64,000 bases of DNA, taken from IMG/VR virus record IMGVR_UViG_2974543039_000001, positions 34,135 to 98,134 of that record. The stretch is one strand, 5' to 3'. A program made the translations under genes and the position numbers. This DNA is from a virus. The notes under the pieces are model-generated. The model saw nothing but the letters and a program-made list of their open reading frames with translations. It was not told the origin of the DNA and ran no database searches. This document shows positions 3,226 to 47,291 of this stretch, piece after piece; positions within the stretch are counted from its first letter, which is position 1; each line of letters opens with the position of its first letter.

Positions 3226-3235
3226 TGCTATATTA
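3226..3235 (+). promoter_or_regulatory. Putative late-promoter motif for major capsid gene
   Basis: TGCTATATTA followed by a structured leader. Confidence 0.65.
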
Positions 3236-8623: not shown

Positions 8624-10333
8624 ATGGCAGTATCATACGGTTATGACAGACAACGTCCTCGTACAGAAGTATTTTTAGACGCTAGCAACCTAGGGTCAGC
8701 AAACGTATTAAGTGAGAAGCCCCTTATTTTAATCGGCTCTGCAAACGGTGGTCAGCCGAATGTAGCGCACTCTATTACTAACTATGCACAAGCCCGGGAG
8801 CTCTTCCGTAGTGGAGACCTCTTAGACGCAATTGAGATGGCATGGAACCCTTCCCCAACCGCTCAAGGTGCAGGTAGAATCATTGCAGTCCGGACGGACC
8901 AAGCAACGCAGGCTAAGCTTAAGCAGGGGGGTTTAACCTTTACATCTAAACTCTATGGTGCAGATGCTAACGGTATCCAAGTAGAATATGGGGACAACAC
9001 ACTTACAAAATCTAAGCGCTTGAGTGTGTACTTCACAAAAGAGCGTTACGAACAAGTCTACGACAATATTGGTAATATCTTTACAGTTCAATATCAAGGT
9101 GAAGAAGCGCAAGCTACTATCGCTGTTGATGTGGACAAAGATACTCACCTAGCTACTCGTCTAGTATTGAGTGTAGGCGCAGATGAAGAGTCCCTTCAAG
9201 CTGTGCGTACATACGAGCTTGGTCAAGGGGTATATCAAGATGTTAACGTGCTAGTTAATGACATTAACAACTTGCCAGACTTTGAAGCACAGATGAACCC
9301 TCTAGGAGGCAATAAGAACATCGAGACTCAAGACCTAGACGGTCTGAAAGCTCAGGATGTTAAATCCGGTCGAGTTACATTGACAGCAGTAGGGGCAGAC
9401 TTAGTTAACCAAACAGCTAACGATTCCTACATTGAAATCACTGTAGATCGCTCAACAGACCTCCCTAATTCTTTTGTTGTAACAAACCTGACTGGGGCTA
9501 AAACTGAACCAGCACCTGCTTCATGGGCAGATATCTATAGTAAAGTAGCAGACCTCGGAGCGTACTACATTGTACCTCTTACTGCTGATGCTGCTATCCA
9601 CGGAGAGCTCTCTCAGTTCCTTCGAGATGAATCTAACAACGGGAACCACCTGAGAGGTGTAGTAGGTGGAGGATTTAATGAAACTATGGAACAGCTCAGA
9701 ACCCGCCAGCTTAACCTCCGGAATGCCCGTGTAAGTGTGGTAGGCAACTCAGGTATTCGAAGAATGTCGGATGGTCGTGTTTACAACTTCCCGGCTTATA
9801 TGTACGCTGCTTTGATTGCAGGTATTGCGAGTGGACTAGAAATCGGTGAGCCGATCACGTACAAGCACGTAAACATCGAGTCTCTTGATCGTAAGTTTAC
9901 GGGAGACCAGCTAGACCAGCTGAACAGCTCTGGAGTAGTTATGACAGAGTTTGTCCGTACTCGTTCAGGTTCCCACTTTCGTGTTGTAAGTGATCCAACA
10001 ACTTATAACGTAGCCACTGAGCCAGTACAGAATCGTATTTCTCTTGGAGAGATTTCTGACTTCTTAACAACTGACTTGCGGACTATGCTCGACGAGGACT
10101 TTATCGGCACCCGGATTAAAGCAACTTCTGCTTCTATCATTAAGAACGCAGTTGAGTCATTCCTTGATAAGCAGAAAGATGTTGGCGGTCTGATCGTAGA
10201 TTACAACCCAGACGATGTCCAAGTTGTAATTACAGGTAACACAGCTCGTATTAGTATCACAGTACAGCCAGCTCAAGGATTAGACTATATCAATGTATAC
10301 ATCACTTACGAAGACAATGAATTGGTTGCGTAA
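8624..10333 (+). CDS. Tail sheath protein
   Basis: 569 aa; FRSGDLLDAIEMAWNP and EPVQNRISLGEISDFL are typical of Twort-like sheaths. Confidence 0.93.
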   Translation: MAVSYGYDRQRPRTEVFLDASNLGSANVLSEKPLILIGSANGGQPNVAHSITNYAQARELFRSGDLLDAIEMAWNPSPTAQGAGRIIAVRTDQATQAKLKQGGLTFTSKLYGADANGIQVEYGDNTLTKSKRLSVYFTKERYEQVYDNIGNIFTVQYQGEEAQATIAVDVDKDTHLATRLVLSVGADEESLQAVRTYELGQGVYQDVNVLVNDINNLPDFEAQMNPLGGNKNIETQDLDGLKAQDVKSGRVTLTAVGADLVNQTANDSYIEITVDRSTDLPNSFVVTNLTGAKTEPAPASWADIYSKVADLGAYYIVPLTADAAIHGELSQFLRDESNNGNHLRGVVGGGFNETMEQLRTRQLNLRNARVSVVGNSGIRRMSDGRVYNFPAYMYAALIAGIASGLEIGEPITYKHVNIESLDRKFTGDQLDQLNSSGVVMTEFVRTRSGSHFRVVSDPTTYNVATEPVQNRISLGEISDFLTTDLRTMLDEDFIGTRIKATSASIIKNAVESFLDKQKDVGGLIVDYNPDDVQVVITGNTARISITVQPAQGLDYINVYITYEDNELVA

Positions 10334-10395: not shown

Positions 10396-10827
10396 GTGGC
10401 AAGTGTAACTAACCAGACAGTCCAGTCTGCAAATACCGTATACTTTATGATTAAGAATATCCCGATTGCTCGTGCGCAATCTATCAACGCTGAACGTAGT
10501 TTCGGTACAACTGGAGTATACCAGATCGGTTCAATCATGCCTCAAGAGCACGTCTACCTGAAGTATGAAGGTAGTGTTACTGTAGACCGTTTCCGTATGA
10601 GAAAAGAGAACTTAGCATCATTAGGGCTTGCGGCTCTAGGTGAAGAAGTCCTCAAAATGGATATTATGGATATTGTTCTCTATGACAACTATACTCAGGA
10701 GGTAGTCATTGCTTATCGTGGTTGCTCAATCGATACATACAATGAGACTACTAACGTCGGTGAGATCACAAGTGAACAAGCCCGTTTCTACTTCTTAACG
10801 TCAGCAAACGTAAAAAGTGGGAAGTAA
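10396..10827 (+). CDS. Tail tube protein
   Basis: MASVTNQTVQSANTVYFMIKN..., GVYQIGSIMPQEHVYL; follows the sheath gene. Confidence 0.92.
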   Translation: MASVTNQTVQSANTVYFMIKNIPIARAQSINAERSFGTTGVYQIGSIMPQEHVYLKYEGSVTVDRFRMRKENLASLGLAALGEEVLKMDIMDIVLYDNYTQEVVIAYRGCSIDTYNETTNVGEITSEQARFYFLTSANVKSGK

Positions 10828-10830
10828 TTA

Positions 10831-10852
10831 GGAGACCTATGGTCTCCTTTTT
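10831..10852 (+). terminator. Intrinsic terminator after tail tube gene
   Basis: GGAGACC-tat-GGTCTCC plus T5. Confidence 0.85.
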
Positions 10853-10865
10853 ATTTACAATGCAC

Positions 10866-10882
10866 ATTACAGTTGAGTTACA
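10866..10882 (-). promoter_or_regulatory. WalR-type box TGTAAC-N5-TGTAAT (minus strand)
   Basis: Plus strand ATTACA-gttga-GTTACA is an exact match to the TGTWAH-N5-TGTWAH WalR consensus, upstream of a yocH-like gene. Confidence 0.5.
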
Positions 10883-10969
10883 ATCCTGTAACATTAAGCT
10901 TTTAACGAATTTAATGTGTTACATTATAGAAGTGATATAGACACAGACAATTCAGAGAGGGGTTTTTTA

Positions 10970-11560
10970 ATGACTTTAAAGAAAGTCCTTATGGTTGGTG
11001 CCTTAACACTTGGAATTGCACTTGCCGGACAAACAGCTGCATCAGCTACCAGCGGATACAGTGTGGTAGACTATTTAGCAGCTCAAGGTAAAGACTCAAG
11101 CTTTAGTTATCGTGGAGAGCTTGCTGCGAACTACGGTATTACAGGATATAGAGGAACAGCAGATCAGAATATCCAGTTACTTGATAAGTTAAAAGGTGGT
11201 TCTGGATATAAAGCTCCTGCAGCAGCTCCGAAGAAGGAAGTAAAGACTGAGTCGGCTGCGCAGCCTAGTTCTCAGTCACTTACAGTCGTAGCAACAGCGT
11301 ATACTGCTAACTGTGCCGGGTGCTCCGGGATTACTGCAACAGGGATTAACCTGAAGGCTAATCCAAATCAAAAAGTAATTGCGGTAGACCCTAATGTTAT
11401 TCCTCTAGGCTCCCGGGTTTATGTCGAGGGCTATGGTGAAGCTGTTGCAGCGGACACAGGCGGAGCTATCAAAGGTAACCGTATTGACTTGTTCATACCT
11501 AGCCAAAGCCAAGCGGTGGACTATGGCAAAAGAACTGTAAAAGTAAACATTCTTAACTAA
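10970..11560 (+). CDS. Secreted YocH-like 3D-domain cell wall enzyme with N-terminal DUF3597-like module
   Basis: Signal peptide MTLKKVLMVGALTLGIALAGQTAASA; SVVDYL...YGITGYRGTADQN module; 3D domain VATAYT...IAVDPNVIPLGS...ADTGGAIKGNRIDL. Confidence 0.88.
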   Translation: MTLKKVLMVGALTLGIALAGQTAASATSGYSVVDYLAAQGKDSSFSYRGELAANYGITGYRGTADQNIQLLDKLKGGSGYKAPAAAPKKEVKTESAAQPSSQSLTVVATAYTANCAGCSGITATGINLKANPNQKVIAVDPNVIPLGSRVYVEGYGEAVAADTGGAIKGNRIDLFIPSQSQAVDYGKRTVKVNILN

Positions 11561-11590
11561 CAGGTGCCTCATGCACCTGTTTTTTCTTTT
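11561..11590 (+). terminator. Intrinsic terminator
   Basis: CAGGTGC/GCACCTG plus long T-run. Confidence 0.85.
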
Positions 11591-11612
11591 TAAAAAATTA
11601 ATAGATTTTATG

Positions 11613-11641
11613 TTGACAATGGATCAACTCCCTTATATAAT
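11613..11641 (+). promoter_or_regulatory. Consensus sigma-A promoter for rok-like gene
   Basis: TTGACA-17-TATAAT with AT-rich upstream element. Confidence 0.85.
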
Positions 11642-11684
11642 AAAGTTACAATCAACAAACACACTATATTAGGGGGAGTAAGAA

Positions 11685-12263
11685 TTGAATAACACGTTTA
11701 CAGAAAGAGAAGCTATTGAAATGAAGTTGAAGTACATATTGGAGGAGAGAACAAGACTGTCCGACCAATTCAATTTCTACCTAGACCGTTTAAGAGAGTT
11801 AGACAGCATGGATAGTTCAAAACTATCAAAAACTGAGGCTACGGTCGAAGTTGCAAAACATGGCGAAACTATGAGTTTGGACGAAGCAATTAAGAAACAT
11901 AACGAAGCAGCTGAGAAGTACGATGAATCTCCGAAGGTCCAAGCAGACCATAAAGATGAAGAACATAAGAAGGAATCTCCTAAGAACGAGAAGAAGACGA
12001 AACGTAAGAAAGAAAGTGGAAGAGGGAAAGGAAGCCGGAATAACCCATATCGGGATATCAAGAAGATCAGTTACCAAGTAGCCTCTATTCTTAAAGAGGC
12101 AGGTAAACCAGTAAAACTAGCTGATCTTATGAAGGAGCTGCAGAGCAGAGGAGTTAGTACTCACTCACCTCATATGCTTATGATCCATATTCAGAAGTAC
12201 CAACCAAAAGTTCAAAAGGCAGCATTCGGTTATTACCAGTATAACCATAGTGTTGCAGTTTAA
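11685..12263 (+). CDS. rok: Rok-like nucleoid-associated repressor (N-terminal oligomerisation helix plus C-terminal winged helix)
   Basis: 192 aa; FTEREAIEMKL...RLRELD..SS and ILK...VK..DL.KE...P.V.K...G.Y match recalled B. subtilis Rok (FNEREALRLRL...KLRELDRNGSS; PEVKKPYRGQY). Not verified by search. Confidence 0.72.
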   Translation: MNNTFTEREAIEMKLKYILEERTRLSDQFNFYLDRLRELDSMDSSKLSKTEATVEVAKHGETMSLDEAIKKHNEAAEKYDESPKVQADHKDEEHKKESPKNEKKTKRKKESGRGKGSRNNPYRDIKKISYQVASILKEAGKPVKLADLMKELQSRGVSTHSPHMLMIHIQKYQPKVQKAAFGYYQYNHSVAV

Positions 12264-12273
12264 TAATAGGTTT

Positions 12274-12309
12274 AAGGCTGTCACTCGAACATATAGTGGC
12301 AGCCTTTTT
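12274..12309 (+). terminator. Intrinsic terminator closing the yocH-like/rok-like cassette
   Basis: AAGGCTGTCACT/AGTGGCAGCCTT plus T-run. Confidence 0.85.
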
Positions 12310-12312
12310 ATA

Positions 12313-12351
12313 TGTTATACTATAGTTACATAACAAAGCACTGCTATATTA
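12313..12351 (+). promoter_or_regulatory. Tandem extended -10 (TGTTATACT) and late motif (TGCTATATTA) before tail chaperone
   Basis: Both motifs read directly, 29 nt apart. Confidence 0.6.
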
Positions 12352-12383: not shown

Positions 12384-12785
12384 ATGGACGAAAATCTAGG
12401 AAAAAACCAAACGCCAGAAGAGAGGGAACTGGCGGAGAGAGCAGAACAAAAAAAGGTCATCGATCGGATTATCCGGGGAGTAAACGATACCTTTGAAAAA
12501 AAGTATGACTTCCCTGAGCTCGATCTGTCCTTTAGGATTAAGCTGAGAGCCCCTAATGCTGTAGAAGTAGGTAAGATTCAGGCTAGGCTAGCAGCTTATT
12601 TAGACGGTATGAACAACTATGCTAGTGGTTATATCATTCGAGTGTTCACTGCACTAGCGTGTATCCGAGTGGTTGGTGTAGAAGTTCCTGAAATACTAGA
12701 GGATGATGAAAAGATTTATAATCTTGATATCCTCTATAAGATTGGGGAGGATTTCCAGCGTTGGCTGGACAACTTTCGAATCTGA
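12384..12785 (+). CDS. Tail assembly chaperone (short form)
   Basis: Upstream of the tape measure gene; RBS AGGAGG; ends ...AAC TTT CGA ATC TGA. Confidence 0.8.
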   Translation: MDENLGKNQTPEERELAERAEQKKVIDRIIRGVNDTFEKKYDFPELDLSFRIKLRAPNAVEVGKIQARLAAYLDGMNNYASGYIIRVFTALACIRVVGVEVPEILEDDEKIYNLDILYKIGEDFQRWLDNFRI

Positions 12786-13434
12786 TTTAAAAAAACTTGG
12801 AGGGATGAAAAGGTTAGCTAAGACACCTTATATGCGAAACCTTTGGTTGCTCATGAAGACGTTTAACACACTACCTACAAACAAGGACTTTTTAGCTCTG
12901 TCTGACGACCAGATAAATATGATGATTTACTCCCTACAAGAAGATGGTAGAGAGATGGAGCTTGCCAGAAAAGGTATTAGTGTAGATGCTGAGTATTACG
13001 ACGCAGACTTTGATGAGGAAGTATGGAATAAGCCTGTCGGTGAGTGGGAAGTACTCCGTGAGGGTCATGATGCTGATGAAATTGCAAGACAGGTGGCTGA
13101 ACTTACTCGTGATGAGGACCTTCGAAACCTTGCATCTAGGTTCGATGGTGTAGATGAGTATAATAAATTCGTCGAAGAGAGCGGAAAGACAGCCAGACAG
13201 TCTGAGGTTGAACAGTACATAGATAGGCAATTTGCCGAAGCGTTGGAGAAAGCAAATAAAATCTCCGCAGCTGGTAAAGGAGCCATGGTAGATGACCAAG
13301 ACCTCGTAGGAGCGTCTAGTAACCCTGCTCTAAGTGAAAGTTCAGTAGATTTAGACAAAGATGCTATTGATCGGTCTATTGCCATGTTTAACTCCATGGA
13401 TGATGACGATGATGACGACTTTGCACACCTATAA
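12775..13434 (+). CDS. Tail assembly chaperone C-terminal extension (+1 frame, likely reached by frameshift)
   Basis: The +1 frame is open across the stop of the upstream ORF; ATG 12805 has only 1 nt spacing to GGAGG. Confidence 0.7.
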   Translation, partial: FESDLKKLGGMKRLAKTPYMRNLWLLMKTFNTLPTNKDFLALSDDQINMMIYSLQEDGREMELARKGISVDAEYYDADFDEEVWNKPVGEWEVLREGHDADEIARQVAELTRDEDLRNLASRFDGVDEYNKFVEESGKTARQSEVEQYIDRQFAEALEKANKISAAGKGAMVDDQDLVGASSNPALSESSVDLDKDAIDRSIAMFNSMDDDDDDDFAHL

Positions 13435-13495: not shown

Positions 13496-16400
13496 ATGGC
13501 AAATATAGAGCAGTATATTTTTAACGTAGATGCGGATACCAGTAAAGCGGTCAGTAAGCTACAGCAGATTAATAAGTTAATGAACCAGATCGACAGTATT
13601 CGAGGAAAAGGTATTAATGAGTACTTTACTACAACTCAGAAAGACATGGATAAGAGCATGAGGTCCATGTCCCAGTTGTCGAAACTATACCGTTCTCTCG
13701 ATCAGGACCTAGCAGAAATTCAGCGTAGAATGAGAGACATGTCTGACCGAACAGCTATCCCGGCAGGTGCGACAAAAGAACAGCAACGACAGATTGAGCA
13801 GCTAAAAAGTAAGATGGAAGAGCAGGCACAGTCTGCAATTCACCAGCAGCGAGCTCTACAGTCTGAATACAATAAGACACTTGCGAAGTTCCGGGAGCTG
13901 TCTTCATTTCAACAAAACTCCTCAAAGAACTTTAAACACATCTTCAGCTCTAACGATATGTTCAACCTCCCTTCCGGAGCAGGAAACTTTAATAGAGCAA
14001 GATCAATCATGGCAGCAATGGCAAGTGAAACAGACGGTGCGTCCAGTAAGCTTAACGATGTCATATCTAAGATTCAAGAAGTAAACAAGCTGGATAGACG
14101 ATCTGAAAGTCTGACCCGTAGAGCCAGTGCGTCTAACTATATGTCTTATCAGCAAGCAACTAGTTTCCGAAAAGACTATAAAACTGTAAACCAAGACTAC
14201 CATGCAGATAAGCGGGCAAATATTGACGCAATGACTTTATTAGGTCAAGAGCGGACAGAGTTAACAAGAAAAATTAAAGAAATTCAAACAAACCCTAACG
14301 CATCACAAAAGGATATCGATAGAAAGGTAGCGATGCAAGGTACGGTTGAGTCCATTGATAAAGAGCGAGAGGCTCGCATGGAGCTTAACCGGGTATTAGA
14401 ACGAACAATTAACAACATGAATAACTATAACGAAAGAGTAACTCGCAACGGTGGAGTAGAAGTTAAACCGGAACGAGGAACTTTTCGGGGCATGGTCTAC
14501 GAGCGATCTCCAGCGATTGGTTTAGCTCTCGGAGCTGCTGCAGGCGGTGTATTCGGGGGGCTGTATGCTAAGGGTGCCCAGCTTAATAAAGGTATTCGTG
14601 ATGATGTAATCGGAATCGGGCAGCGTACTGGGCAGGATAACTGGACAGAGACGATCCGTGATAACGCATTAGAATCGGGATTAAAGGATCGACTTGGTTT
14701 TGGTGGGCAAGACATGCTCTCCTTCCAGAATAACTATCTGGCTAACTCTGGCTACAAAGGTATGGACGATCTCAATACTGCGATGAACAGCCAAGCTGTA
14801 TTTAGCCGATCCACTGGCTTAGATGCTAATACAACTAGAGACTTCTTCAATTCCACATTCAAAACCGGAGCAGTCAACGGGAATCAAGTAAAGGATATTC
14901 AAAATGCCTTTATTGGTGGTATCAAGCAGAGTGGAATGGAAGGTCGTGAAAAGGAGCAGCTTAAGGCACTACAAGGTTTATTAGATGGGGTATCCCGAGG
15001 TCGTTCTTTGAAAAACGGCGATGTTATGAATGTCATGGGCTTACAGTCTGTACTTTCTCAATCTGGACTCCGTTCTTTATCCGGGGAGCAAGGTGGTCAG
15101 CTACTATCTGACTTGAACGCAGGTATTCGGCAGGGGTATAACAACCCTATGGTCCGTTTAGCTTTTGGTCAGGGTACCAAGTATCAAGGGTTAGAAGGTC
15201 GTTTCGCCCTACGTCAGCAGATGGATAAGGGGATAAGTGATGCCGATAACGTCCGCAATATAGGGCGTATCGCATCTAGTTACTCCAACTCTGAAGCCGG
15301 ACAGAACGAGGCGTTTGCTTCTTTTGTTCAAGAGGGGCTAGGTACAGACATTACAGCTGAACAAGCTAAGGGTTTGATGGACCTTTACCGTAATGGGAAG
15401 CTAACGGATGAGAATATTAACAGCGTACTCAATACCGATAAATCTACGGGCAGTAAAGTGTCTAAGGATAACCTTGAGAAGTATCAGAACTCCAAAGAAG
15501 CTCTATCAAACCAGAGTGAAGCCACAACAGATAAGCAAGCAACAGAGTTGTATGACTATGGTAAGGTGTTACGGCAGGCTAATGAAGCACTAGGGGCGTT
15601 TAACCCTCTTGTTTATGCTGCAGTTACCGCCCTAGGCGCTTTAGCTGCTGCAGCTACTGCTTCTGCTGCATCGTTTGGTGTAGGTGCTCTTCTACGTAGA
15701 GGTGCTGCGAGGACACTAGGAGCAGGGGGAACCATAGCTGGAGGTCTCACTGGCAGACTCCGAGGTGGGGGAGGTAGCGGCGGTGCCGGAGGGGGCGGAG
15801 TAGGTTTATTCGGAACCCTTCGTAACTCCGTAGGTCGATATACTGATCCGTATGCTCGCTCTGGAGGTTTACCTAATACTGGACCAGCTAGTGGTTCCGG
15901 AGCTGGGGCTGGACTGTTTGGTCGGGTTAAGGAAGGTGCCGGAAACCTCTGGAGTAAGGTTACTGGAGGAGCAGGAGCAGCCGCTACGGGAGCAGGTACA
16001 GTAGCCGCCGGAACCGAAGCAGCGACAGGAGCTGCCGCAGGTGCTGCCGCAGGTGCTGCTAGTGGAGGTAGTAAAGTCCTACAAGGTCTTGGTAAAGTGG
16101 GAGGAATCTTGGGTAAAGTTGCCCTACCTCTCGGTATTATCACAGGTGTAGGACAGATCGCCGCAGCCCCAGAAGATCAAAAAGGGGAAGCGACAGGCTC
16201 TGCTGCGGGAGGCATCGGCGGTGGTCTAGCAGGGGCAGCCCTAGGAGCCTCAATCGGATCAATTGTTCCGGGCATAGGTACAGCAATCGGAGGAGTTGTT
16301 GGAGGGATCGCTGGTTCCTTCGGAGGCGGAAGTCTTGGTGGCTGGTTTGGAAGTCTATTTGACCCCGACAAAAAGACAGATGCTCCTACTTCTGAGGAGA

Positions 16401-17320
16401 GTAAAGCTGCTGCTTCATCCCCTCGGGCAAATGAAGTAGACCAGCAGGTAGACAGGGAGAACACTAACACCAAGGACCGAGCAGAAAATAAACGCTCTGA
16501 CAACCTAACTCTTGAGCGAGCCAATCTTAATAAGTACGATGATGTGCTTAACCGTGCGTCTCAAATCCTAAACCAAGCCCGGATGCAAAACGGTATTTTC
16601 GGTAGTGCAAACGGTAGTAGCGGAGGATCAGGCGGAGACGGAAGTGCAATTGGGGGAGCCGGGGGGTCACTGAAGATGCTTTCTAATGGGCAGAAGTGGG
16701 CTAACCCGTCTGATCTGAAGAACTCTGACTTAGGGTACACAGATGCTAAGCTAACGGCTGACGATCTCAATTCATGGATTGACTCCAAAGCACCAAAAAA
16801 CTCCATGATGAGAGGCATGGGTGAAGCCTTCTTCAAAGCAGGACAGGAGTCCGGTCTTGACCCTCGCTACTTGATTGCTCATGCAGCACAAGAGACAGGA
16901 TGGGGAACATCTAATATCCTGAAGGACAAAAACAACTGGTTTGGTATTGGAGCGTTTGACAATTCTCCGCACTCCTCCGCCAAGACTTTTAAAGGCAGGG
17001 AGCAGGGTATTGTAGATGGAGCTAAATGGATCGCTCAGAACTACTACGGTAAAGGTAATACAACCTTGTCTAAGATGAAGCAGGCAGGGTATGCTACTGA
17101 CCCGCAGTGGGCTAATAATATTAGTGCCATCATGAAAAACGCCCCTTCAGGTACTGGTACTGTCAAGGTTGATTCCACAATCAACGTAAAAGTATCAGGA
17201 GATGAGAAAGTGTCATCCAAAGTAGAGAACTCAAAAGACTTAGAGAAAGTCGCCAATACAATCCAGAGTAAGATTTATGGGTCTATGGCTTATTATGCAC
17301 AGGAAACGAAGAGGGTATAA
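13496..17320 (+). CDS. Tape measure protein with C-terminal GH73-like glucosaminidase
   Basis: 1274 aa helical protein with Gly/Ala-rich hydrophobic segments; C-terminal AHAAQETGWG...NNWFGIGAFD...YATDPQWA. Confidence 0.9.
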   Translation: MANIEQYIFNVDADTSKAVSKLQQINKLMNQIDSIRGKGINEYFTTTQKDMDKSMRSMSQLSKLYRSLDQDLAEIQRRMRDMSDRTAIPAGATKEQQRQIEQLKSKMEEQAQSAIHQQRALQSEYNKTLAKFRELSSFQQNSSKNFKHIFSSNDMFNLPSGAGNFNRARSIMAAMASETDGASSKLNDVISKIQEVNKLDRRSESLTRRASASNYMSYQQATSFRKDYKTVNQDYHADKRANIDAMTLLGQERTELTRKIKEIQTNPNASQKDIDRKVAMQGTVESIDKEREARMELNRVLERTINNMNNYNERVTRNGGVEVKPERGTFRGMVYERSPAIGLALGAAAGGVFGGLYAKGAQLNKGIRDDVIGIGQRTGQDNWTETIRDNALESGLKDRLGFGGQDMLSFQNNYLANSGYKGMDDLNTAMNSQAVFSRSTGLDANTTRDFFNSTFKTGAVNGNQVKDIQNAFIGGIKQSGMEGREKEQLKALQGLLDGVSRGRSLKNGDVMNVMGLQSVLSQSGLRSLSGEQGGQLLSDLNAGIRQGYNNPMVRLAFGQGTKYQGLEGRFALRQQMDKGISDADNVRNIGRIASSYSNSEAGQNEAFASFVQEGLGTDITAEQAKGLMDLYRNGKLTDENINSVLNTDKSTGSKVSKDNLEKYQNSKEALSNQSEATTDKQATELYDYGKVLRQANEALGAFNPLVYAAVTALGALAAAATASAASFGVGALLRRGAARTLGAGGTIAGGLTGRLRGGGGSGGAGGGGVGLFGTLRNSVGRYTDPYARSGGLPNTGPASGSGAGAGLFGRVKEGAGNLWSKVTGGAGAAATGAGTVAAGTEAATGAAAGAAAGAASGGSKVLQGLGKVGGILGKVALPLGIITGVGQIAAAPEDQKGEATGSAAGGIGGGLAGAALGASIGSIVPGIGTAIGGVVGGIAGSFGGGSLGGWFGSLFDPDKKTDAPTSEESKAAASSPRANEVDQQVDRENTNTKDRAENKRSDNLTLERANLNKYDDVLNRASQILNQARMQNGIFGSANGSSGGSGGDGSAIGGAGGSLKMLSNGQKWANPSDLKNSDLGYTDAKLTADDLNSWIDSKAPKNSMMRGMGEAFFKAGQESGLDPRYLIAHAAQETGWGTSNILKDKNNWFGIGAFDNSPHSSAKTFKGREQGIVDGAKWIAQNYYGKGNTTLSKMKQAGYATDPQWANNISAIMKNAPSGTGTVKVDSTINVKVSGDEKVSSKVENSKDLEKVANTIQSKIYGSMAYYAQETKRV

Positions 17321-17404: not shown

Positions 17405-19564
17405 ATCACGACCATTTTAAAGCGGTACCCCACTTTTGAAATCGAGATTGAAACTGAAAAAACATCATATCAGCTAACATATGATACTGCTAAGCAGTTA
17501 ACACTGAAAAGTTTTGAGGAAGCAATTATCTCATTTAGTGTTAAAAATGCTATGGCAGACGACAGCCCCGTATTCTCCCTTGTTATTACAGCAAAGGAGA
17601 AATGGGATAAACTACTTAATGCAAACAACCGAATTAGTATTAAAACAATCCCGGACGTAACAAAAGGACGACCAGATAACCCTTACATCATGGTAGGGCT
17701 TCTATCAGAAATTCGTAAAGAAGGGGAGTTTGCTGATGGGACATTACTCTACAGGATCACAGGAAGAGCCATGACGAAAGCACTCATTGATTTTAACGTA
17801 GGGGTGATCCAAGAAGTTGCGACCATTATTCCAAGTATAGGTTGGTTACCTGACGGAGGAAATAAAGGGCTACAATTCTCTGGTAACACCGCAGCAGGTA
17901 TTGGGAACGAGTTAATGGAGAGGTTCGTATACAAGCACGCCAAGTATGAATTCTCTAGTGGTAAAACGCTGAAGGACTATTTAACTCACGGGTTCACGAG
18001 TTGGGAGAAGGATGAGTCTCTGGCGGATGTTACCCCTTTTATTAACTACGAGGGAAGCCTCAGACAGTTCTTAGAAGACATCTCAGCTAAACCATTCAAT
18101 GAACTATTCTTTGAGTACACAAAGGATGGAAAATGCAAGGCAATAATGCGACCTACTCCGTTTGATCCGGATAAGTGGTATCAGCTACCTACATATCGTT
18201 TCACTTCCGATGTTGTAGTTGAAGAGTCCTTCGGTAAGTCAGATGCAGAAATGTACTCTGTATACGTAGTTCAAGCTCCTAACGTGATGGAGTTTAACAG
18301 TATGGACTTGGGAGTCTATCCAAAGTTCCATAAAGAGCTCATTAACAAGTATGGTTATAAAAGGCTAGATGCAGAAAATAGATACCTCCTTTCCAGCACA
18401 ATTGCAAATGCTACACAAGACGGTACTGCTGGAGGAGATAACTCCGTTCCTCTGCCAGAGTATAAGGACCTTCTTACATTCATCACCCAAAATAATTTCC
18501 AAGACCCAGAGATACTACGAACACAAAAAAGTACAGTATACTCTGAACTTATCTCCCAGTTCCCTTCAATTTCAGACACGTTGGCTAATAATATTATTGA
18601 CAGCTTAAAAGCAGGAGACTTCACTCAAGAAGAGTATAACAATATGAAGACATCTACAGGAGATAAGGAAAAGGATAAAGAAATTAACAAAGAAAAGGGA
18701 GTGGCTAGTAAGAAGTTAGAGAAGTATACCCAGCGTCTCTTTAACTGGTATTGCGAGAATGCCAACTTCTATAGTGGTGATATTCGGTTACTAGGCGACC
18801 CGTTATATCGTTTAGGTTCTAGGCTATTCTATGAAGACTTTGAGCAGCAGACAACGTGGGAATTCTATGTTGAGTCAGTGCAGCATGAGTTTAGTTTTAC
18901 CAACGGATACACGACTATTTTAGGAGTTACCCGAGGTCTTCCGGACGCAGGAGCCAAAAGGTTTAATAACCTATGGGGAAAATCAGAGGACTTTAAGGGT
19001 GGCTACCTAGGAGAGATGTCCCTTCAAGACCTGCTAAAAGAAGCGAAGAAAGCTCAAAATACTACCGATGAAGACGCAGGAGGAGATAGTGACTGGGGAG
19101 ATGGCTCTGGTGGCGGGGGCGCACTAGGTGCTCTTAATACGGCAAAAGCCATGGGAGAACGTAAGTCTGTTTATGACTTCGGCGGAGGACGTTCTGGTAA
19201 AAACCCATTCCTATCTAGTCCTATTAGAGCGGACTGCTCGTCCTTTGTGTGGTGGTGCTTCTACGTAAACGGAGTAACACTTAATGGAGGAAAAACAGGA
19301 ATGTCCACAGATACAATTAAAGTGGATAAGCAGCTGAAAACGATCAGCTCAAGAGGCTCTTCTAAGAGTGTGGCTAAGAGTAAGATTAAACAAGGGGACA
19401 TCGTATACTTCGACACATATAAAGCTGACGGGCACGTAGGTATCTATCTTGGGGCAGGTAAATTCATAGGCTGTCAAGATGGTACTGGAATTGCTGCAGC
19501 GAATATGAACAGCGGGTACTGGTGGCAGAAGTTTAACGGTAGAGTGCTCCGATATGAAGGATAA
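17405..19564 (+). CDS. Baseplate hub/tail lysin with C-terminal NlpC/P60 peptidase (probable ATC start; ORF-track start 17552)
   Basis: DCSSFVWW...GHVGIYLG catalytic Cys/His; frame stays open upstream to TGA 17399; GAGG lies 9 nt before ATC 17405. Confidence 0.85.
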   Translation: MTTILKRYPTFEIEIETEKTSYQLTYDTAKQLTLKSFEEAIISFSVKNAMADDSPVFSLVITAKEKWDKLLNANNRISIKTIPDVTKGRPDNPYIMVGLLSEIRKEGEFADGTLLYRITGRAMTKALIDFNVGVIQEVATIIPSIGWLPDGGNKGLQFSGNTAAGIGNELMERFVYKHAKYEFSSGKTLKDYLTHGFTSWEKDESLADVTPFINYEGSLRQFLEDISAKPFNELFFEYTKDGKCKAIMRPTPFDPDKWYQLPTYRFTSDVVVEESFGKSDAEMYSVYVVQAPNVMEFNSMDLGVYPKFHKELINKYGYKRLDAENRYLLSSTIANATQDGTAGGDNSVPLPEYKDLLTFITQNNFQDPEILRTQKSTVYSELISQFPSISDTLANNIIDSLKAGDFTQEEYNNMKTSTGDKEKDKEINKEKGVASKKLEKYTQRLFNWYCENANFYSGDIRLLGDPLYRLGSRLFYEDFEQQTTWEFYVESVQHEFSFTNGYTTILGVTRGLPDAGAKRFNNLWGKSEDFKGGYLGEMSLQDLLKEAKKAQNTTDEDAGGDSDWGDGSGGGGALGALNTAKAMGERKSVYDFGGGRSGKNPFLSSPIRADCSSFVWWCFYVNGVTLNGGKTGMSTDTIKVDKQLKTISSRGSSKSVAKSKIKQGDIVYFDTYKADGHVGIYLGAGKFIGCQDGTGIAAANMNSGYWWQKFNGRVLRYEG

Positions 19565-19583: not shown

Positions 19584-21653
19584 ATGGACGAAAATCAGTT
19601 TAGCCCGTTTTCCACTCCACTGTCCCCGATTAGGCTACAAGCCCAGTTAGGGAAAGAAACAAAACGGATGATTCAAGAGGGGAAAAATATTGTAAGGTTA
19701 TCCTTAGCCCGGGTTGTTAAAGTTAACTATAAATATAATACAGTTGATGTAATCACGACTTTAAACAACAACTCCACAGTCAAAAACCCTAACGACAACG
19801 GAAGGTTTTCTGCCCGGCTCCCGGTGTCCTTTGGGGGTAAGACTCCGGATGGCAATATCTATGGAGCTAATACACTAGTTACTGTAGGGTCACTAGTTCT
19901 TATTGGTTACATGGAGGGGAATAAGGATTATCCAATCGTTTTGAATATCTACGGAGATGCGGATAATCAATCACAGTTAACCCGGACGTCGTTTACTAGT
20001 GCCGATGAGTCTGATGAAGCACTACAGCGAGAATTATGGCAACTATTTACTCTATACCCTTCGATGACCTATAAGAATGTTGACGGTAACGGAAACCAAG
20101 AGGTTACATTCTCAGGGAAGTCTTTTCTGTATGTAACAGACACGGATCAAGACAATGCGTATGTACAGGATGCCGGGTTTAACTATGAAGACCTCCCTAG
20201 TTCCCGCTATGCTAACGGAGAGTTAATTGAGCCGAAGTCTCCTTACTCTCCTACTTTATTATACGTCCACCAAGGTATCTATGACAAGCATAGAGTAACG
20301 TTCTTCATCAAGTCAGATGGTACCGTACGGCTGGGGAGTAAGCATACTTCAGGAGAAGGGGTTACTTTTTTTGAGATGACTACTGACGGAGGTTTCCAAG
20401 TAGTTCAACAAAAAGGAACTGCTAACCCTGAAGAGACGCCAGAGAAGTTTTCTAAAGTAGGCATCCTCGAAGATGGTACAGTAGTAATGAAGTCACAGAA
20501 GCACGTCATGGAGGTAAACAATGATGGCGTCTACATTGATGGAAAAGCTATTTCTGCCTTCGTAGGTGGAGGAAGTGTCCCGGACGGTAATGGTGGGACT
20601 ATAACTTTAGAAGATGTAGTCGACAGCTTAAAAGATGTTAAGACAACCATTACAATACAGAATGGAAAAATAGAATCTAAGGTTGGAAGGACAGAGTATA
20701 AAATTGACTTAGATGCAGTCAAGGACTACTCTAAAGAGCTTTTTGATGGGGTAAGTGCAGAGGTAGATGACATTAATAAAAGTCTCGAAAACCTTGACGA
20801 CCTTTTAGACGAGTCATTTAAAGACGGAATTATAGAAGAGTCAGAGGCTCGTTCTATCGGAATGTACATAAATAACTTGAATACTCAAAAGTCTGAACTA
20901 GATGCGAAGTATAATCAGATTTATACCAACAAATATTTAACCGGAGACCCTAAGACTAATCTCGATAACGCAAAAAAAGACTTTGATTTAAAGCACCAAG
21001 CTCTTATAGATGTCATCCAAGGTGCCATTGTTGACGGTAAAATCACTACTGAAGACCGAGAGGCAATCAACAACGCTTTTGATGCGTACCACAAGTGCGT
21101 ATCTACCCTTTCCTCGGCTTTTGAAGCTGCAACGGATGCAATTGCACTGGCTATGGCTAAAGAGGCAGAGGACAACGCTAAAGACTTTGTAAACGGTGAG
21201 ATAAAAAAAGTAAATTCAACAATCACTCAACTAGCAGATTCAATCAGCAGTAAAGTTGAATCGGAGACGTTTACAGAAACGATAAAAAATGTGAACTCTC
21301 GAATCGCCGAAACAGAGGAAAGTGTTTCAGACACGAATAAACGAGTAGAGGAAGTTGAAAAGAAGCTACCGTATGCCTGTCAGATAATAAGTACCGACGG
21401 AGTAGCTTTTCAAGGAGGAACCTATTCGACTACTCTTTTTGCCAAAATTACAAAAGGAGATCAGGATATCACATCTTCTATTGATGCCAAGATACTTAGA
21501 TGGACTAGGATATCGAACGATGCGGCAGCTGATGAGGAATGGAATAAAACACACGGAATCGGAGTTAAGTCAATAACAGTCACTAATGCGGATGTTAGAG
21601 CACGAGCTACTTTCCAATGTACCTTTGACACCGATGATCTAGGAGGAGGATAA
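19584..21653 (+). CDS. Central tail spike/tail protein (OB-fold-like N-terminus, coiled coil, Ig-like end)
   Basis: LARVVKVNYKYNTVDV N-terminus; follows the tail lysin; ATG 19584 after AGGTGA. Confidence 0.6.
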   Translation: MDENQFSPFSTPLSPIRLQAQLGKETKRMIQEGKNIVRLSLARVVKVNYKYNTVDVITTLNNNSTVKNPNDNGRFSARLPVSFGGKTPDGNIYGANTLVTVGSLVLIGYMEGNKDYPIVLNIYGDADNQSQLTRTSFTSADESDEALQRELWQLFTLYPSMTYKNVDGNGNQEVTFSGKSFLYVTDTDQDNAYVQDAGFNYEDLPSSRYANGELIEPKSPYSPTLLYVHQGIYDKHRVTFFIKSDGTVRLGSKHTSGEGVTFFEMTTDGGFQVVQQKGTANPEETPEKFSKVGILEDGTVVMKSQKHVMEVNNDGVYIDGKAISAFVGGGSVPDGNGGTITLEDVVDSLKDVKTTITIQNGKIESKVGRTEYKIDLDAVKDYSKELFDGVSAEVDDINKSLENLDDLLDESFKDGIIEESEARSIGMYINNLNTQKSELDAKYNQIYTNKYLTGDPKTNLDNAKKDFDLKHQALIDVIQGAIVDGKITTEDREAINNAFDAYHKCVSTLSSAFEAATDAIALAMAKEAEDNAKDFVNGEIKKVNSTITQLADSISSKVESETFTETIKNVNSRIAETEESVSDTNKRVEEVEKKLPYACQIISTDGVAFQGGTYSTTLFAKITKGDQDITSSIDAKILRWTRISNDAAADEEWNKTHGIGVKSITVTNADVRARATFQCTFDTDDLGGG

Positions 21654-21656
21654 ACT

Positions 21657-24600
21657 ATGGCAGTTATTACAGGTCAAATATCATTAATTGACTACGGAGA
21701 TGCTCTAACTTTAACAGGGTTTATTACAGCAAATAGCCCTAGGATACAGCAGTATAGCCCGGCGGATGAGAAGTTCACCCCTGACTGGACCAAAACGCCT
21801 TTAATTTTAACAGCATCATTATTTAAAATGGGGGACTCTAATGACATAATCCGTGACCCAGAGGTACAGAGTATAAACTGGTACGATGCGTCCAACGCAG
21901 GGACCCCGCTAAAAACAGGCGGACCATACTCTGTTAACAATGAAACCCTCACGATCAAGGATAATATTCTGTCAGATAAGCCAGCTATAGATTTTATCTG
22001 TGAGGTTGTATATAGAGACACGGATTCAATGATGGATATCCCTCACAAGATGAGTATTTCTTTTAGTCGGGTGTCTGACGGCAGTAGTGTAGCATCCGCT
22101 TCGGCATGGCTACCCAACGGAAATATTTTTAAAAATGATCGGATTCCAACTCTAATAGCCGAGTGTGATTTATGGAGATCAGGGAAGATGGACAATACGA
22201 ACGTTTCTTTCCAGTGGTACAACCAAGACCCTACTGTAACTGAGGATCAGGGAGGAGGAGCTGGGTGGCGGAAACTGACTGATAGCTCTAATAGTGGGGA
22301 AACCGGGTATACAACACGGCAGCTTACAGTACCTTCCAGCGCAGTTCCGAGCTTCGAGGTGTATAAGTGTGTCATTACAGATACTGATAGCAGCAGCCCT
22401 ACATACAATCAGACTTACCAAGATACAGTCACATTTTTGGACCAGTCTGATCCTGTGCAAGTTTCTATTACCTCTACAGGCGGAGATGTTTTTAAAAATG
22501 GAGTAGGCTCAACTACCTTGTCTGCTCAAGTCTACCAAGGCGGGCAAGAGATAGATAAAGAGGGGGAGAAGTACCAGTATAAGTGGTACAAGTATAACAA
22601 AGAAGGAGTACTTGATCCAGACTTTGGAGGCTCTAAAACATACAAAGAGGGCAAGAGCTTAAAGGTCACAAGTGATGATGTTGACGTAAAAGCTACTTTC
22701 CTATGTGGAATTGATGGCGCAGTCGCTCAGTTCACTATATACGACATCACAGATACTGTTGTAAGCCCAACAGAACCAGCTAACCCAGTAGAAGGCATGA
22801 TCTGGCTAAAGAACTCGGGAGAGCCACCATACCGTTTTTATATCTACAAAGACGGGGGTTGGCAGACAACAGATTTTGACAGCTTAGAATCATTAGACCC
22901 GGATTCTTATAATCGAGTGAAAGACGCATACAATGCGATTACTGACCTAGATATGGATAATAAAATCACTCGGTATGAGCGTAGTGTTATTCGAGGGGAG
23001 CTAGCTAATATCCTAGGAGTATATCTTAGTGATACAGATAACATGCCAACCATTGACACAGTAGATGCAAGTGGAGCCGGAGACCTGTACTCTATCAGGA
23101 AACAAGCTAGGGATGTCGGTGTTCCAACAAATGATGCCAAGTATGTACAAATAGGAGCAGCTTATACAGACCTAAAAGACTATCTTACAAGTTTACCAAT
23201 TAAACCATGGGATGTAGGTTCTCTAGGGGTTATTGAAGTAGATAGTGATGAATGGGACTCTGCTTGGAAAAACTATTACTTAGCCTATAACTTCTTAAGT
23301 ATAACGGTAACGAATAGACAGAAGGAGTACACTGACATCGTCGGGGATGGAGCTAAGAAAGATGCTATTGCTGCAGTTAGTAACGCAGACCAATATCAAG
23401 AAGCCCTTATAAAAAATCCTATGACTATTACTGCTCCTATTGCGAGTTTAGGTCTTCCGATTTTCGAGGGTAGGCATGTCGATAGTTGGTCGTTGAACCC
23501 AGATGCCAAGGATAACTGGGCACTTAACGGTAACCGCATCCAGCCAATAACAAACCCAATCGTGAGTTCAGTAGGCTCACTTACCATCTACGGGCAATTT
23601 TATGGAGATGGTACCAACAATGATCAGTTCACATGGGACAGGGATGGTAAGGCAGTAAAGATCAAGAGATGGGCAGACATCTCTTTAGACGGAGATTTCC
23701 AATGGCAGCTAGGGGAAGATTATACGGGTGCAAAACAAGTACTCATACCCAACTTCATCGATCAGATACCTGCGGCAATGACCGCTCAAGCAGTTAAGCA
23801 TGATGGGACATTCCTTACAACAATCGATAGCGATATGGCAACTGCGGATCAGGTTATATTAGGAGAGGACCGGGTTCTTTATATCTCAGTTGCGGATATC
23901 GAAAGTGGGTGGGGTGAAGATTACGCACCAGAGCCAAAGGAGATAGCTGCCTATTTTAATGGGTGGAGAATGTGTAATGGTACCTTCGGAACTCCGTATA
24001 ACGGTGTGGGCAACAAAGTGTGGTATCCGATTGGGGATAAGGACTTATCTCGATCTACCATTGTTTCTGGCGGTAACGTTTTTAATCCGGTACCCGAGGA
24101 TAGAGCACCTACACTAGAGGAGCAAACAATCAATAAATATCAGCTAGTGTATCGGAACTCTGACGCAGTAAGGCAAACAGTTGACTTTGATGGTATTATG
24201 TCGCTGTTGCAGGGGGATAACCAAGTTTCATTCGGCTACCCATTGAACACGCCTTTTATCCTATCTGGAGTAATAAAGTATGCTACAAACGTAGCTACTG
24301 TAACCGATAACCTCAAATATTGGATTCCTGCGGTACAAGAAAGACTCTCTAAAGCTGAGCAGGTTATCACAGAGGACTCCATCACAAACATTGTTACCAA
24401 CTCGGTGCAGTATAGAACAGCTCTAGCATCTAAGGCAGATACAGAAGCTCTAGGTGACTACGCCACAACAGGAGACCTGACAGATTTATCTGGCGATATC
24501 AATGGTCGTATTGCAAACGCTATTGATGCAATTGACTTTGAGCCTTACGCTACAAAATCTGAGCTTAAGCAAACTGCAACAGATATTACTGCAAAATTCC

Positions 24601-35546: not shown

Positions 35547-35585
35547 TGTTATAATAAATTTGTGGAACTAAACACTGTTATATTA
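35547..35585 (+). promoter_or_regulatory. Tandem extended -10 (TGTTATAAT) and late motif (TGTTATATTA)
   Basis: Same 29-nt offset as at 12313/12342. Confidence 0.6.
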
Positions 35586-39885: not shown

Positions 39886-39925
39886 TGCTATATTAAGGGA
39901 GAGACAAATGTCTCTTCTTTTTTTT
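39886..39925 (+). promoter_or_regulatory. Late motif overlapping an intrinsic terminator
   Basis: TGCTATATTA 39886-39895 immediately followed by GAGAGAC-aaat-GTCTCTT plus T-run. Confidence 0.55.
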
Positions 39926-47262: not shown

Positions 47263-47291
47263 TTGACATTAGTTATACGGTCTGTTATAAT
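47263..47291 (+). promoter_or_regulatory. Consensus sigma-A promoter
   Basis: TTGACA-17-TATAAT, followed by cta-GTTACA. Confidence 0.85.

Follow-up and report, generated by a model that had tools for sequence, protein, structure and literature searches.

Two separate units encoding a 3D-domain protein and a divergent Rok-like protein between the tail tube and tail chaperone genes of Bastillevirinae phages

Introduction

Morons are genes with their own promoter and terminator that lie between the structural genes of late operons; the concept comes from the lambdoid phages. Here we describe two genes with a comparable arrangement in a Bacillus phage. They lie between the tail tube gene and the tail assembly chaperone genes in a 64,000-nucleotide stretch of DNA (hereafter the window; positions 34,135 to 98,134 of IMG/VR record IMGVR_UViG_2974543039_000001). 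One encodes a protein with a 3D domain (the 3D gene) and the other encodes a protein resembling the Bacillus nucleoid protein Rok (the Rok-like gene).

To our knowledge, Rok is the only H-NS-like silencer of Bacillus. It binds AT-rich DNA, forms bridges between DNA segments, and represses comK as well as foreign genes. A review that covers phage-encoded silencers has no phage Rok homologue in its list and names Bacillus as the sole genus with Rok (PMC7074111). Phage Rok-like copies have so far been recognised in database annotation only, as 'putative repressor of ComK' and 'Rok winged helix domain-containing protein'. Described proteins with a 3D domain include YocH (SpsA), YabE (SpsB) and YuiC (SpsC) of B. 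subtilis, and YorM of SPbeta. The Sps proteins are lytic transglycosylases, which cut glycan strands and leave 1,6-anhydro products. The yocH promoter is bound and activated by the response regulator WalR (PMC4478028).

We found that the two phage genes form separate units, each with its own upstream signals and terminator, and that both appear to be long-standing residents of the phage subfamily Bastillevirinae. We favor the interpretation that they are two independent, anciently resident moron-type units. One would encode an exported transglycosylase wired to the host regulator WalR, and the other an early, divergent member of the Rok family. We give this interpretation a probability of roughly 0.6.

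Results

Two terminator-bounded units between the tube and chaperone genes

The window comes from a complete genome of 156,430 bp with terminal repeats. Its tube-chaperone region is 100% identical to that of Bacillus phage vB_BsuM-Goe24 and 97-99% identical to those of Goe17/20/25/27, BSP12/14, BM-P1 and BvP. By these matches the source is a Grisebachstrassevirus (Herelleviridae, Bastillevirinae).

A first-pass annotation had placed two open reading frames (ORFs) between the tail tube and chaperone genes, each with its own upstream regulatory sequence, and terminators at three sites around them. ORF calls confirmed the places of the genes, and we found a regulatory sequence upstream of each. 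The features of the interval are:

10830-10848, plus strand: intrinsic terminator T1, 3' of the tube gene; 8-bp stem and U tract (-13.9 kcal/mol, z -4.7)
10866-10893, minus strand: WalR-consensus repeats; three half-sites that make two overlapping TGTWAH-N5-TGTWAH matches
10917-10926, plus strand: TGTTACATTA, an extended -10-like element without a -35 hexamer, ~45 nt 5' of the 3D start codon
10970-11560, plus strand: 3D-domain gene, 196 amino acids (Pfam 3D match, YuiC alignment)
11559-11581, plus strand: intrinsic terminator T2, 3' of the 3D gene (-13.4 kcal/mol, z -5.8)
11613-11641, plus strand: sigma-A promoter sequence TTGACA-17-TATAAT, matching the consensus at 12/12 positions
11685-12263, plus strand: Rok-like gene, 192 amino acids, TTG start (Pfam WH_Rok match, AlphaFold model, Foldseek, alignment with host Roks)
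12274-12306, plus strand: intrinsic terminator T3, 3' of the Rok-like gene; 12-bp stem and 9-nt loop (-17.9 kcal/mol, z -4.9)

Folding and comparison with shuffled sequences bore out all three terminators. T1 and T2 came from a terminator scan; T3, with its 9-nt loop, was passed over by the scanner and was assessed by folding. For each of the three, none of the shuffles folded as well (0/200), and a U tract follows every hairpin. The authors of the Bc431v3 genome paper independently list terminators after orf221, orf222 and orf223 (Torf221, Torf222 and Torf223).

The hairpins recur in related phages. A hairpin and T-run follow the tube gene in 9/9 genera in which the 3D gene comes next; in Troll, other genes and not the 3D gene lie directly 3' of the tube gene. 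The T2 hairpin is maintained in other genera through compensatory changes. T3 was found in Troll, Deep Blue, TsarBomba, Goe8 and Bc431v3, and in the interval comparison it was absent from BSP38, phiNIT1, SIOphi and Bp8p-C.

The 3D gene encodes a predicted exported wall enzyme

We prefer the ATG at 10970 as the start of the 3D gene over the GTG at 10916. It has a ribosome-binding site (GAGAGGGG) and gives a protein of 196 residues, the same as in the Goe24 annotation. The parts of the protein are:

residues 1-26: signal peptide (predicted)
residues ~27-75: wall-binding repeat
between these and the 3D domain: linker
residues 104-196: 3D domain

The protein matches Pfam 3D (4.6e-23, 81.6 bits) and aligns to B. 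subtilis YuiC (PDB 4wjt; 5e-13), with D140, D162 and D173 at the positions of YuiC D129, D151 and the catalytic D162. As a member of the Sps/3D family, it is predicted to be a lytic transglycosylase acting on peptidoglycan. The name that PHROG gives to the protein, 'L-alanyl-D-glutamate peptidase', has been inherited and is wrong for this MltA-type fold. By inspection, the N-terminus consists of MTLKK, a 15-residue hydrophobic core and A-S-A before T27. It reads as a Sec signal peptide, and we predict that the protein is exported. The orthologues in Goe8 and phiNIT1 have N-termini of a similar kind.

The region after the signal peptide (residues ~27-75) is a single DUF3597-like repeat. Besides an Amidase_2 domain, the endolysin of the phage has three such repeats in tandem at its C-terminus, and these share 51-58% identity with the repeat of the 3D protein. 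The endolysin is encoded outside the window (21078-22166 of its own genome; L152:1339-2421, minus strand). A Pfam search of the 3D protein found no LysM match, where SpsA/YocH has two LysM domains at its N-terminus. The phage genome has only one 3D domain by tblastn. We rejected a second 3D paralogue, as the other three tblastn places are the wall-binding repeats of the endolysin.

The catalytic domain resembles host proteins closely. It is up to 79% identical to chromosomal proteins of Priestia, Psychrobacillus, Halobacillus and others. Compared with three B. subtilis-group genomes, it is 58-70% identical to the products of genes at the yocH position and 63-64% identical to those at the yabE position; identity to YuiC-type genes is 36-40%. 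In a tree of the catalytic domain only (94 columns), the phage copies fall within the YocH/YabE radiation in three places, with support too weak to decide between a single origin and several. The three places are occupied by phages of the B. subtilis/B. pumilus type, phages of the B. cereus group (beside yocH-position genes), and Goe8.

By these comparisons the 3D protein is a phage-specific chimera of a signal peptide, an endolysin wall-binding repeat and a YocH/YabE-type catalytic domain. The description 'yocH-like' in the first-pass annotation therefore suits the catalytic domain and not the architecture. Its broader claim of resemblance to Bacillus chromosomal genes holds for the catalytic domain of the 3D protein, which shares 58-79% identity with Bacillaceae proteins, and for the Rok-like protein at the profile level only (~22% identity in the DNA-binding domain).

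WalR-type repeats upstream of the 3D gene

We found that the 3D gene is preceded by tandem matches to the WalR consensus. In the window, the pattern TGTWAH-N5-TGTWAH matched twice (0.64 +/- 0.77 expected), and the two matches overlap in the repeats at 10866-10893, where the three half-sites are phased at 11 bp. The 156-kb genome has four matches to the pattern. The pair 5' of the 3D gene is the sole tandem, and the other two are isolated single matches.

The repeats are conserved. Two overlapping matches also lie 5' of the 3D gene in BSP38, phiNIT1, SIOphi, Troll, Deep Blue, Goe8, TsarBomba and Bastille, and Bp8p-C has one match. Thus, WalR-type sites precede the 3D gene in 10/10 Bastillevirinae genera despite diverged surroundings. 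The 29 half-sites read D-T-W-A-C-A, the exact complement of TGTWAH, with four positions invariant. The other two differ only as W and H permit, and no half-site has C at its first plus-strand position.

Similar sites are found upstream of host genes. Strict WalR sites lie within 300 nt 5' of 19 of 80 host 3D homologues, compared with 1 of 668 background windows. In B. subtilis-group genomes, the yocH-position genes have a WalR site at -113, and the phage sites are at comparable distances (-104 and -93). No strict WalR site was found 5' of the yabE-position genes in these genomes.

The -10-like element TGTTACATTA is kept as tgtgttacatta in 7/10 genera. The WalR matches are centered at approximately -47 and -58 from the start site that this element implies. 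With TGTTACATTA downstream of them, the boxes would fall at roughly -39 to -66, the usual place for activators of the OmpR/PhoB type. From a -10 element without a -35 hexamer and three phased WalR half-sites, we predict that the 3D gene is under the control of the phosphorylated host regulator (WalR~P).

The Rok-like protein has the architecture of Rok

We found that the Rok-like protein resembles Rok in fold and in the order of its parts, which are:

residues 7-48: N-terminal long helix
middle: acidic region
residues 85-122: basic linker
residues 125-186: winged helix

Residues 132-184 match Pfam WH_Rok (PF23159; 43.3 bits compared with a cut-off of 27.6), as do all of the aligned relatives of the protein (20/20). 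An AlphaFold (AF2) model made from the 20-sequence alignment has a long helix at residues 7-48 (predicted local distance difference test, pLDDT, 94-96), a short helix at 65-76, a disordered basic linker at approximately 85-122, and a confident winged helix at 125-186. The linker and winged helix together have an isoelectric point of ~9.9. Foldseek ranked the DNA-binding domain of Rok first for this model (5zuz, also 5zux; E 2.9e-3, template modelling score TM(target) 0.59, ~22% identity). Sequence searches of the PDB with the single protein or with a 20-member profile did not retrieve the Rok DNA-binding domain; the fold search alone did. Toward the N-terminus, an ERxAL...RLRELD motif aligns with ten host Roks, and for this part a precomputed assignment of the protein to PF26513 exists. 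The helix of most phage copies is 7 residues shorter than that of host Rok.

The DNA-reading residues of Rok are replaced in the phage protein. N154, K171 and R174 are invariant over 201 Rok homologues, and Rok with the N154D substitution does not bind DNA (Duan et al., PMC6212790). In our alignment, N154, T156 and R174 correspond to S161, H163 and F181 of the window protein, so the N-T-R triad is not found there. At these positions the nine phage copies have S/A/N/H, Y/H and F/R/H/N/W, respectively. In contrast, 10/10 aligned host Roks keep N and R, and all save one, with S, have T at position 156. K171 is retained as K178. The phage clade has invariant motifs of its own, S-P-Y and GYYQY.

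Phage and chromosomal proteins are also separated at the level of the family. Chromosomal Roks were found with Pfam WH_Rok in 75 of 401 sampled Bacillales genomes, at 80-102 bits, and the profile of the phage family gives only 16-18 bits against B. subtilis-type Rok. In a maximum-likelihood tree, 43 chromosomal Roks fall on one side of a branch (SH-aLRT, the Shimodaira-Hasegawa-like approximate likelihood ratio test, 89), and 9/9 phage copies form one clade with metagenomic sequences (96% support). We conclude that, by fold and architecture, the protein is a member of the Rok family and yet belongs to a distinct, old subfamily. The separation in the tree led us to reject recent capture of the Rok-like gene from a current host. 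This rejection does not extend to the 3D catalytic domain. Comparison of gene trees with host copies, which the first-pass annotation had proposed, gave different outcomes for the two genes: a separate clade for the Rok-like protein, and a weakly supported place within the YocH/YabE radiation for the 3D domain.

The family is largely one of Bacillus phages. An exhaustive HMMER search gave 278 cluster representatives at E <= 0.001, and the named close relatives are Bacillus phage proteins. Of the 139 phage records in which tblastn detected the Rok-like gene, 137 carry the name of a Bacillus phage. One of the remaining two is an unnamed phage and the other is 'Xanthomonas phage Xoo-sp15', with a tube protein that shares 86.5% identity with that of the window. 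The hosts of phages with the gene include B. subtilis, B. licheniformis, B. pumilus, B. megaterium, B. cereus, B. thuringiensis and B. anthracis. The last four species are reported to be without Rok (Duan et al., PMC6212790). A tblastn search of 72,556 plasmids with the Rok-like protein gave nothing even at E 10, and there is no detectable tie to sRok of pLS20. One peptide pattern from the alignment, compared with 185,579 species genomes, found no relative.

Several other observations concern Rok-type proteins and sites. Adastra (SPO1-like, Spounavirinae) encodes at an unrelated position a 318-residue protein, gp054 (L157:1679-2635), with a C-terminal WH_Rok domain (64 bits). By eye, its N-P-T-T motif appears to retain the N and T reading residues of Rok, and its long N-terminal part differs. 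Several Rok-bearing Bacillales genomes (G050, G183, G287, G311 and G376) have a second and shorter WH_Rok ORF, with an open frame of 125 residues (62-64 bits), ~5.5 kb from rok and on the opposite strand. In NCBI, a 20.8-kb contig assigned to Collinsella aerofaciens encodes a Rok-like protein of the phage type, named 'Rok-like winged helix domain-containing protein'; this is probably a phage contig or contamination, and not an actinobacterial gene. AACTA, the pentamer best bound by host Rok, is rarer in the window than expected from a Markov-1 model (159 compared with 223 +/- 14), and TACTA is mildly low (191 compared with 215 +/- 15).

A sigma-A promoter sequence precedes the Rok-like gene

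The consensus sigma-A sequence is rare in the window. There are three such sites in the 64 kb: the one upstream of the Rok-like gene, one antisense within an ORF, and one 5' of an SbcC-like nuclease gene. This last site (47263-47291) is the only other gene-oriented TTGACA-17-TATAAT; the nuclease gene (47339-49237) is in the replication/recombination module. An equivalent promoter lies directly after the terminator of the 3D gene in 9/9 genera with a Rok-like gene, with 9-12 of the 12 positions kept. The Bc431v3 genome paper independently lists this promoter as Porf221.

Different signals are associated with the structural genes:

12313-12321, plus strand: TGTTATACT, putative restart promoter of the chaperone gene
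12342-12351, plus strand: late-type motif TGCTATATTA, putative restart promoter of the chaperone gene
1412-1421, 3226-3235, 12342-12351, 35576-35585 and 39886-39895: TGCTATATTA/TGTTATATTA sites upstream of genes

The motif TGCTATATTA (once TGTTATATTA) lies 40-130 nt 5' of the protease, major head, tail chaperone, virion-protein and minor head genes. The more general pattern TGYTAYATTA has seven matches in the window (0.83 expected), and TGCTATATTA upstream of the chaperone gene is kept in all genera compared. We consider TGCTATATTA a candidate -10 element of phage late promoters. Because the structural genes carry TGCTATATTA and the Rok-like gene carries a sigma-A promoter sequence, we infer a late-type restart at the chaperone gene and early expression of the Rok-like gene by host polymerase.

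The interval in related phages

We found that the junction between the tube and chaperone genes is a permissive, variable site in the Herelleviridae. In SPO1-like Adastra and Listeria phage List-36 the chaperone gene directly follows the tube gene and the interval is empty. In the Kayvirus phiSA012 it contains six other small ORFs, including an HNH nuclease. In the Bastillevirinae the 3D gene is always toward the chaperone side, and the order in BSP38, phiNIT1, SIOphi, Troll, Deep Blue, Goe8, TsarBomba and Bp8p-C is tube, variable genes, 3D, Rok-like, chaperone. The number of extra genes between the tube and 3D genes varies (four in Troll, one in Goe8, three in Bp8p-C), and in SIOphi, Goe8 and TsarBomba the 3D gene and the Rok-like gene have extra ORFs between them.

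The two genes themselves vary little in presence or position. The 3D gene is in 10/10 sampled Bastillevirinae genera, and the Rok-like gene is in 9/10 at the same position. Full-length 3D matches were found in 211 phage records, the same as the count of records with a tube protein at least 80% identical to that of the window. Bastille keeps the 3D gene; there is no Rok-like gene in its interval and no WH_Rok match anywhere in its genome. By their distribution, both genes are fixed in the Bastillevirinae and are inherited vertically, and their pairing is not obligatory.

These comparisons divide two earlier proposals. The junction had been called an insertion hotspot, and its contents do vary across the Herelleviridae; the pair, however, neither arrived recently nor is mobile, given that 10/10 genera have the 3D gene and 9/10 the Rok-like gene, at the same position. 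The expected co-occurrence within the Bastillevirinae is found in nine of the ten genera and fails in Bastille, which lacks the Rok-like gene.

Flanking genes

The genes on either side of the interval are:

8624-10333, plus strand: sheath gene
10396-10827, plus strand: tail tube gene, left flank (PHROG 985, 1.2e-72; annotated as tail tube in relatives)
12384-12785 and overlapping 12703-13434, plus strand: tail assembly chaperone pair, right flank (PHROG 1038 and 4988)
13496-17320, plus strand: tape measure gene

The two chaperone ORFs overlap in different frames. A joined frameshift product is annotated in relatives (Troll and TsarBomba, and by a +1 shift in Adastra), and the overlap is probably the usual programmed frameshift of these genes.

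Discussion

Each unit would consist of its own control region, gene and terminator within the late tail operon. We propose that the 3D gene is switched on by WalR~P, the essential regulator of wall homeostasis in the host, as is host yocH. Once outside, the enzyme would attack the wall of the cell under infection, and possibly those of its neighbors. Expression of the Rok-like gene would start early, at a strong sigma-A promoter of the host type, and would not depend on the late tail genes. The protein appears to keep the oligomerizing helix, basic tail and winged helix of Rok. Most likely it binds or bridges DNA, and, since the residues that read the minor groove are replaced, its specificity most likely differs from that of host Rok.

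Several points weigh against this interpretation. The phage WalR sites are oriented opposite to those of the host yocH type; VicR, the WalR orthologue, binds sites on either strand (PMC4168254). The TTACA repeats could serve a phage factor instead. The -10-like element of the 3D gene resembles the late motif, and expression may be late rather than driven by WalR. In the four genera without T3, read-through into the chaperone gene is possible. DNA binding by the Rok-like protein is not assured, given the replaced triad and the loss of DNA binding in Rok N154D. In addition, we found no transcriptome or promoter study of a Bastillevirinae phage in the literature.

The first-pass annotation took the two genes to be one coordinated host-reprogramming module of host mimics, affecting the envelope and the chromatin or competence state. 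Rok does repress comK and cell-surface genes in B. subtilis (PMC2978689), and in 9/10 genera the two genes are neighbors; both, with host-type control signals of their own, are insulated from the tail operon. Nonetheless, a single module seems quite unlikely to us: each gene is a transcription unit of its own, a different regulator is predicted for each, other ORFs lie between them in three genera, and in Bastille the 3D gene has no Rok-like partner. No result of the analysis couples the functions of the two genes. The idea of a Rok mimic did not survive, because the Rok-like protein occurs in phages of Rok-less, poorly competent hosts; it also forms its own clade and has lost the triad. Action on Rok itself is a different matter. 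The phage protein might be mainly an anti-silencer or modulator that co-oligomerizes with host Rok through the N-terminal helix, like plasmid sRok. Heteromers of sRok and Rok exist and change bridging (PMC9757077), the ERxAL...RLRELD motif is common to the phage protein and host Rok, and the window has fewer copies of AACTA, the motif of host Rok, than expected. We regard this as unlikely, since phages of the B. cereus group and of B. megaterium, hosts reported to be Rok-less, conserve the gene to the same degree, and the helix is shortened in most phage copies. It is also improbable that the two proteins are late helpers of morphogenesis or lysis expressed with the tail genes, the 3D protein as a virion or tail lysin or second endolysin and the Rok-like protein as an assembly or packaging factor. 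The predicted cleavable Sec signal peptide, found in the Goe8 and phiNIT1 orthologues too, speaks against a location in the virion, even though the Bc431v3 authors give gp222 as a possible lysin. Neither orf221 nor orf222 is in the portion of the Bc431v3 virion mass-spectrometry table available to us, and the phage already has a tape measure protein, a tail protein with lysin activity (17552-19564) and the Amidase_2 endolysin. The position of both genes in the tail module, the resemblance of TGTTACATTA to the late motif TGCTATATTA and the absence of T3 in four genera would fit late expression; the consensus sigma-A promoter behind a terminator, in 9/9 genera with the Rok-like gene, would not.

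The phased repeats upstream of the 3D gene might instead be operators of a phage regulator, possibly the Rok-like protein, with the match to WalR a coincidence. There are three half-sites and not two, their orientation is opposite to that of the host yocH-type sites, and a predicted DNA-binding protein is encoded next door. We find this explanation doubtful. Bastille keeps the repeats without any Rok-like gene, and, unlike what is often seen with a phage operator, the genome does not use the motif at further sites. Moreover, where the 29 half-sites differ from one another, they do so at the W and H of the WalR consensus and nowhere else, and the gene downstream is a homologue of a textbook WalR target. 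Control by WalR~P remains our preferred explanation of the repeats.

A bolder version of the two-unit interpretation can be offered tentatively. The 3D gene of a virulent phage might be a genuine member of the essential WalRK regulon of the host. Through it the phages would sense the state of wall synthesis and of growth, and the YocH-like muralytic enzyme would be secreted in growing cells only, with the muropeptides released possibly signaling through PrkC to dormant neighbors. The Rok clade might be a new variant of DNA recognition, used early in infection, with S-P-Y and GYYQY rather than N-T-R.

If the WalR boxes function as predicted, they would give a clear example of a phage promoter connected to an essential two-component system of the host. 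A subfamily of lytic phages with a divergent, predicted-early Rok variant, in which the DNA-contact residues differ, would provide a natural experiment on DNA reading by the Rok fold. The same variant bears on the benefit that a nucleoid protein brings to a lytic phage, even where the host has none. Relatives such as Goe3/Goe7, SBSphiJ, phiNIT1, Deep Blue and Bc431v3 serve research on defense systems and biocontrol. Since such phages are in use, telling genes for host interaction from genes of the 'structural region' improves their annotation.

Comparison with known systems

The Rok-like protein is most similar to the xenogeneic silencer Rok of B. subtilis (5ZUZ/5ZUX) and to sRok of plasmid pLS20. 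It is nearly the same length as Rok (192 and 191 residues), with the same domain order, the ERxAL...RLRELD motif, a WH_Rok domain and an equivalent of K171. It differs from B. subtilis Rok in its score on WH_Rok (43 bits, compared with 80-102 for chromosomal Roks), its separate clade, the replacement of N154/T156/R174 by S/H(Y)/F, which vary among copies, and its own S-P-Y and GYYQY motifs. Its linker is highly charged, whereas that of Rok is neutral, and it is encoded by lytic phages, some of them phages of Rok-less hosts. As a phage copy of a host family of nucleoid-associated silencers, it has parallels in H-NS of phage EPV1 and Lsr2 of mycobacteriophages (PMC7074111).

The 3D protein shares with YocH, YabE, YuiC and SPbeta YorM a 3D/MltA-type domain, the three aspartates and predicted export, and its gene shares a WalR box with yocH. 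Its ancillary domain is one DUF3597-like repeat, in contrast to the two LysM domains of YocH and the DUF348 and G5 domains of YabE, and its 3D domain is only distantly similar to that of YuiC (36-40% identity). Upstream of the phage gene there are three WalR half-sites in reverse orientation, whereas yocH has one forward pair.

The organization of the two units is that of lambdoid morons. Like morons, they are terminator-bounded and appear to be separately promoted, they sit between essential morphogenetic genes, and the late operon seems to be restarted downstream. Unlike the morons found sporadically in temperate phages, they are fixed across a subfamily of virulent phages, and one of them apparently uses a host response regulator.

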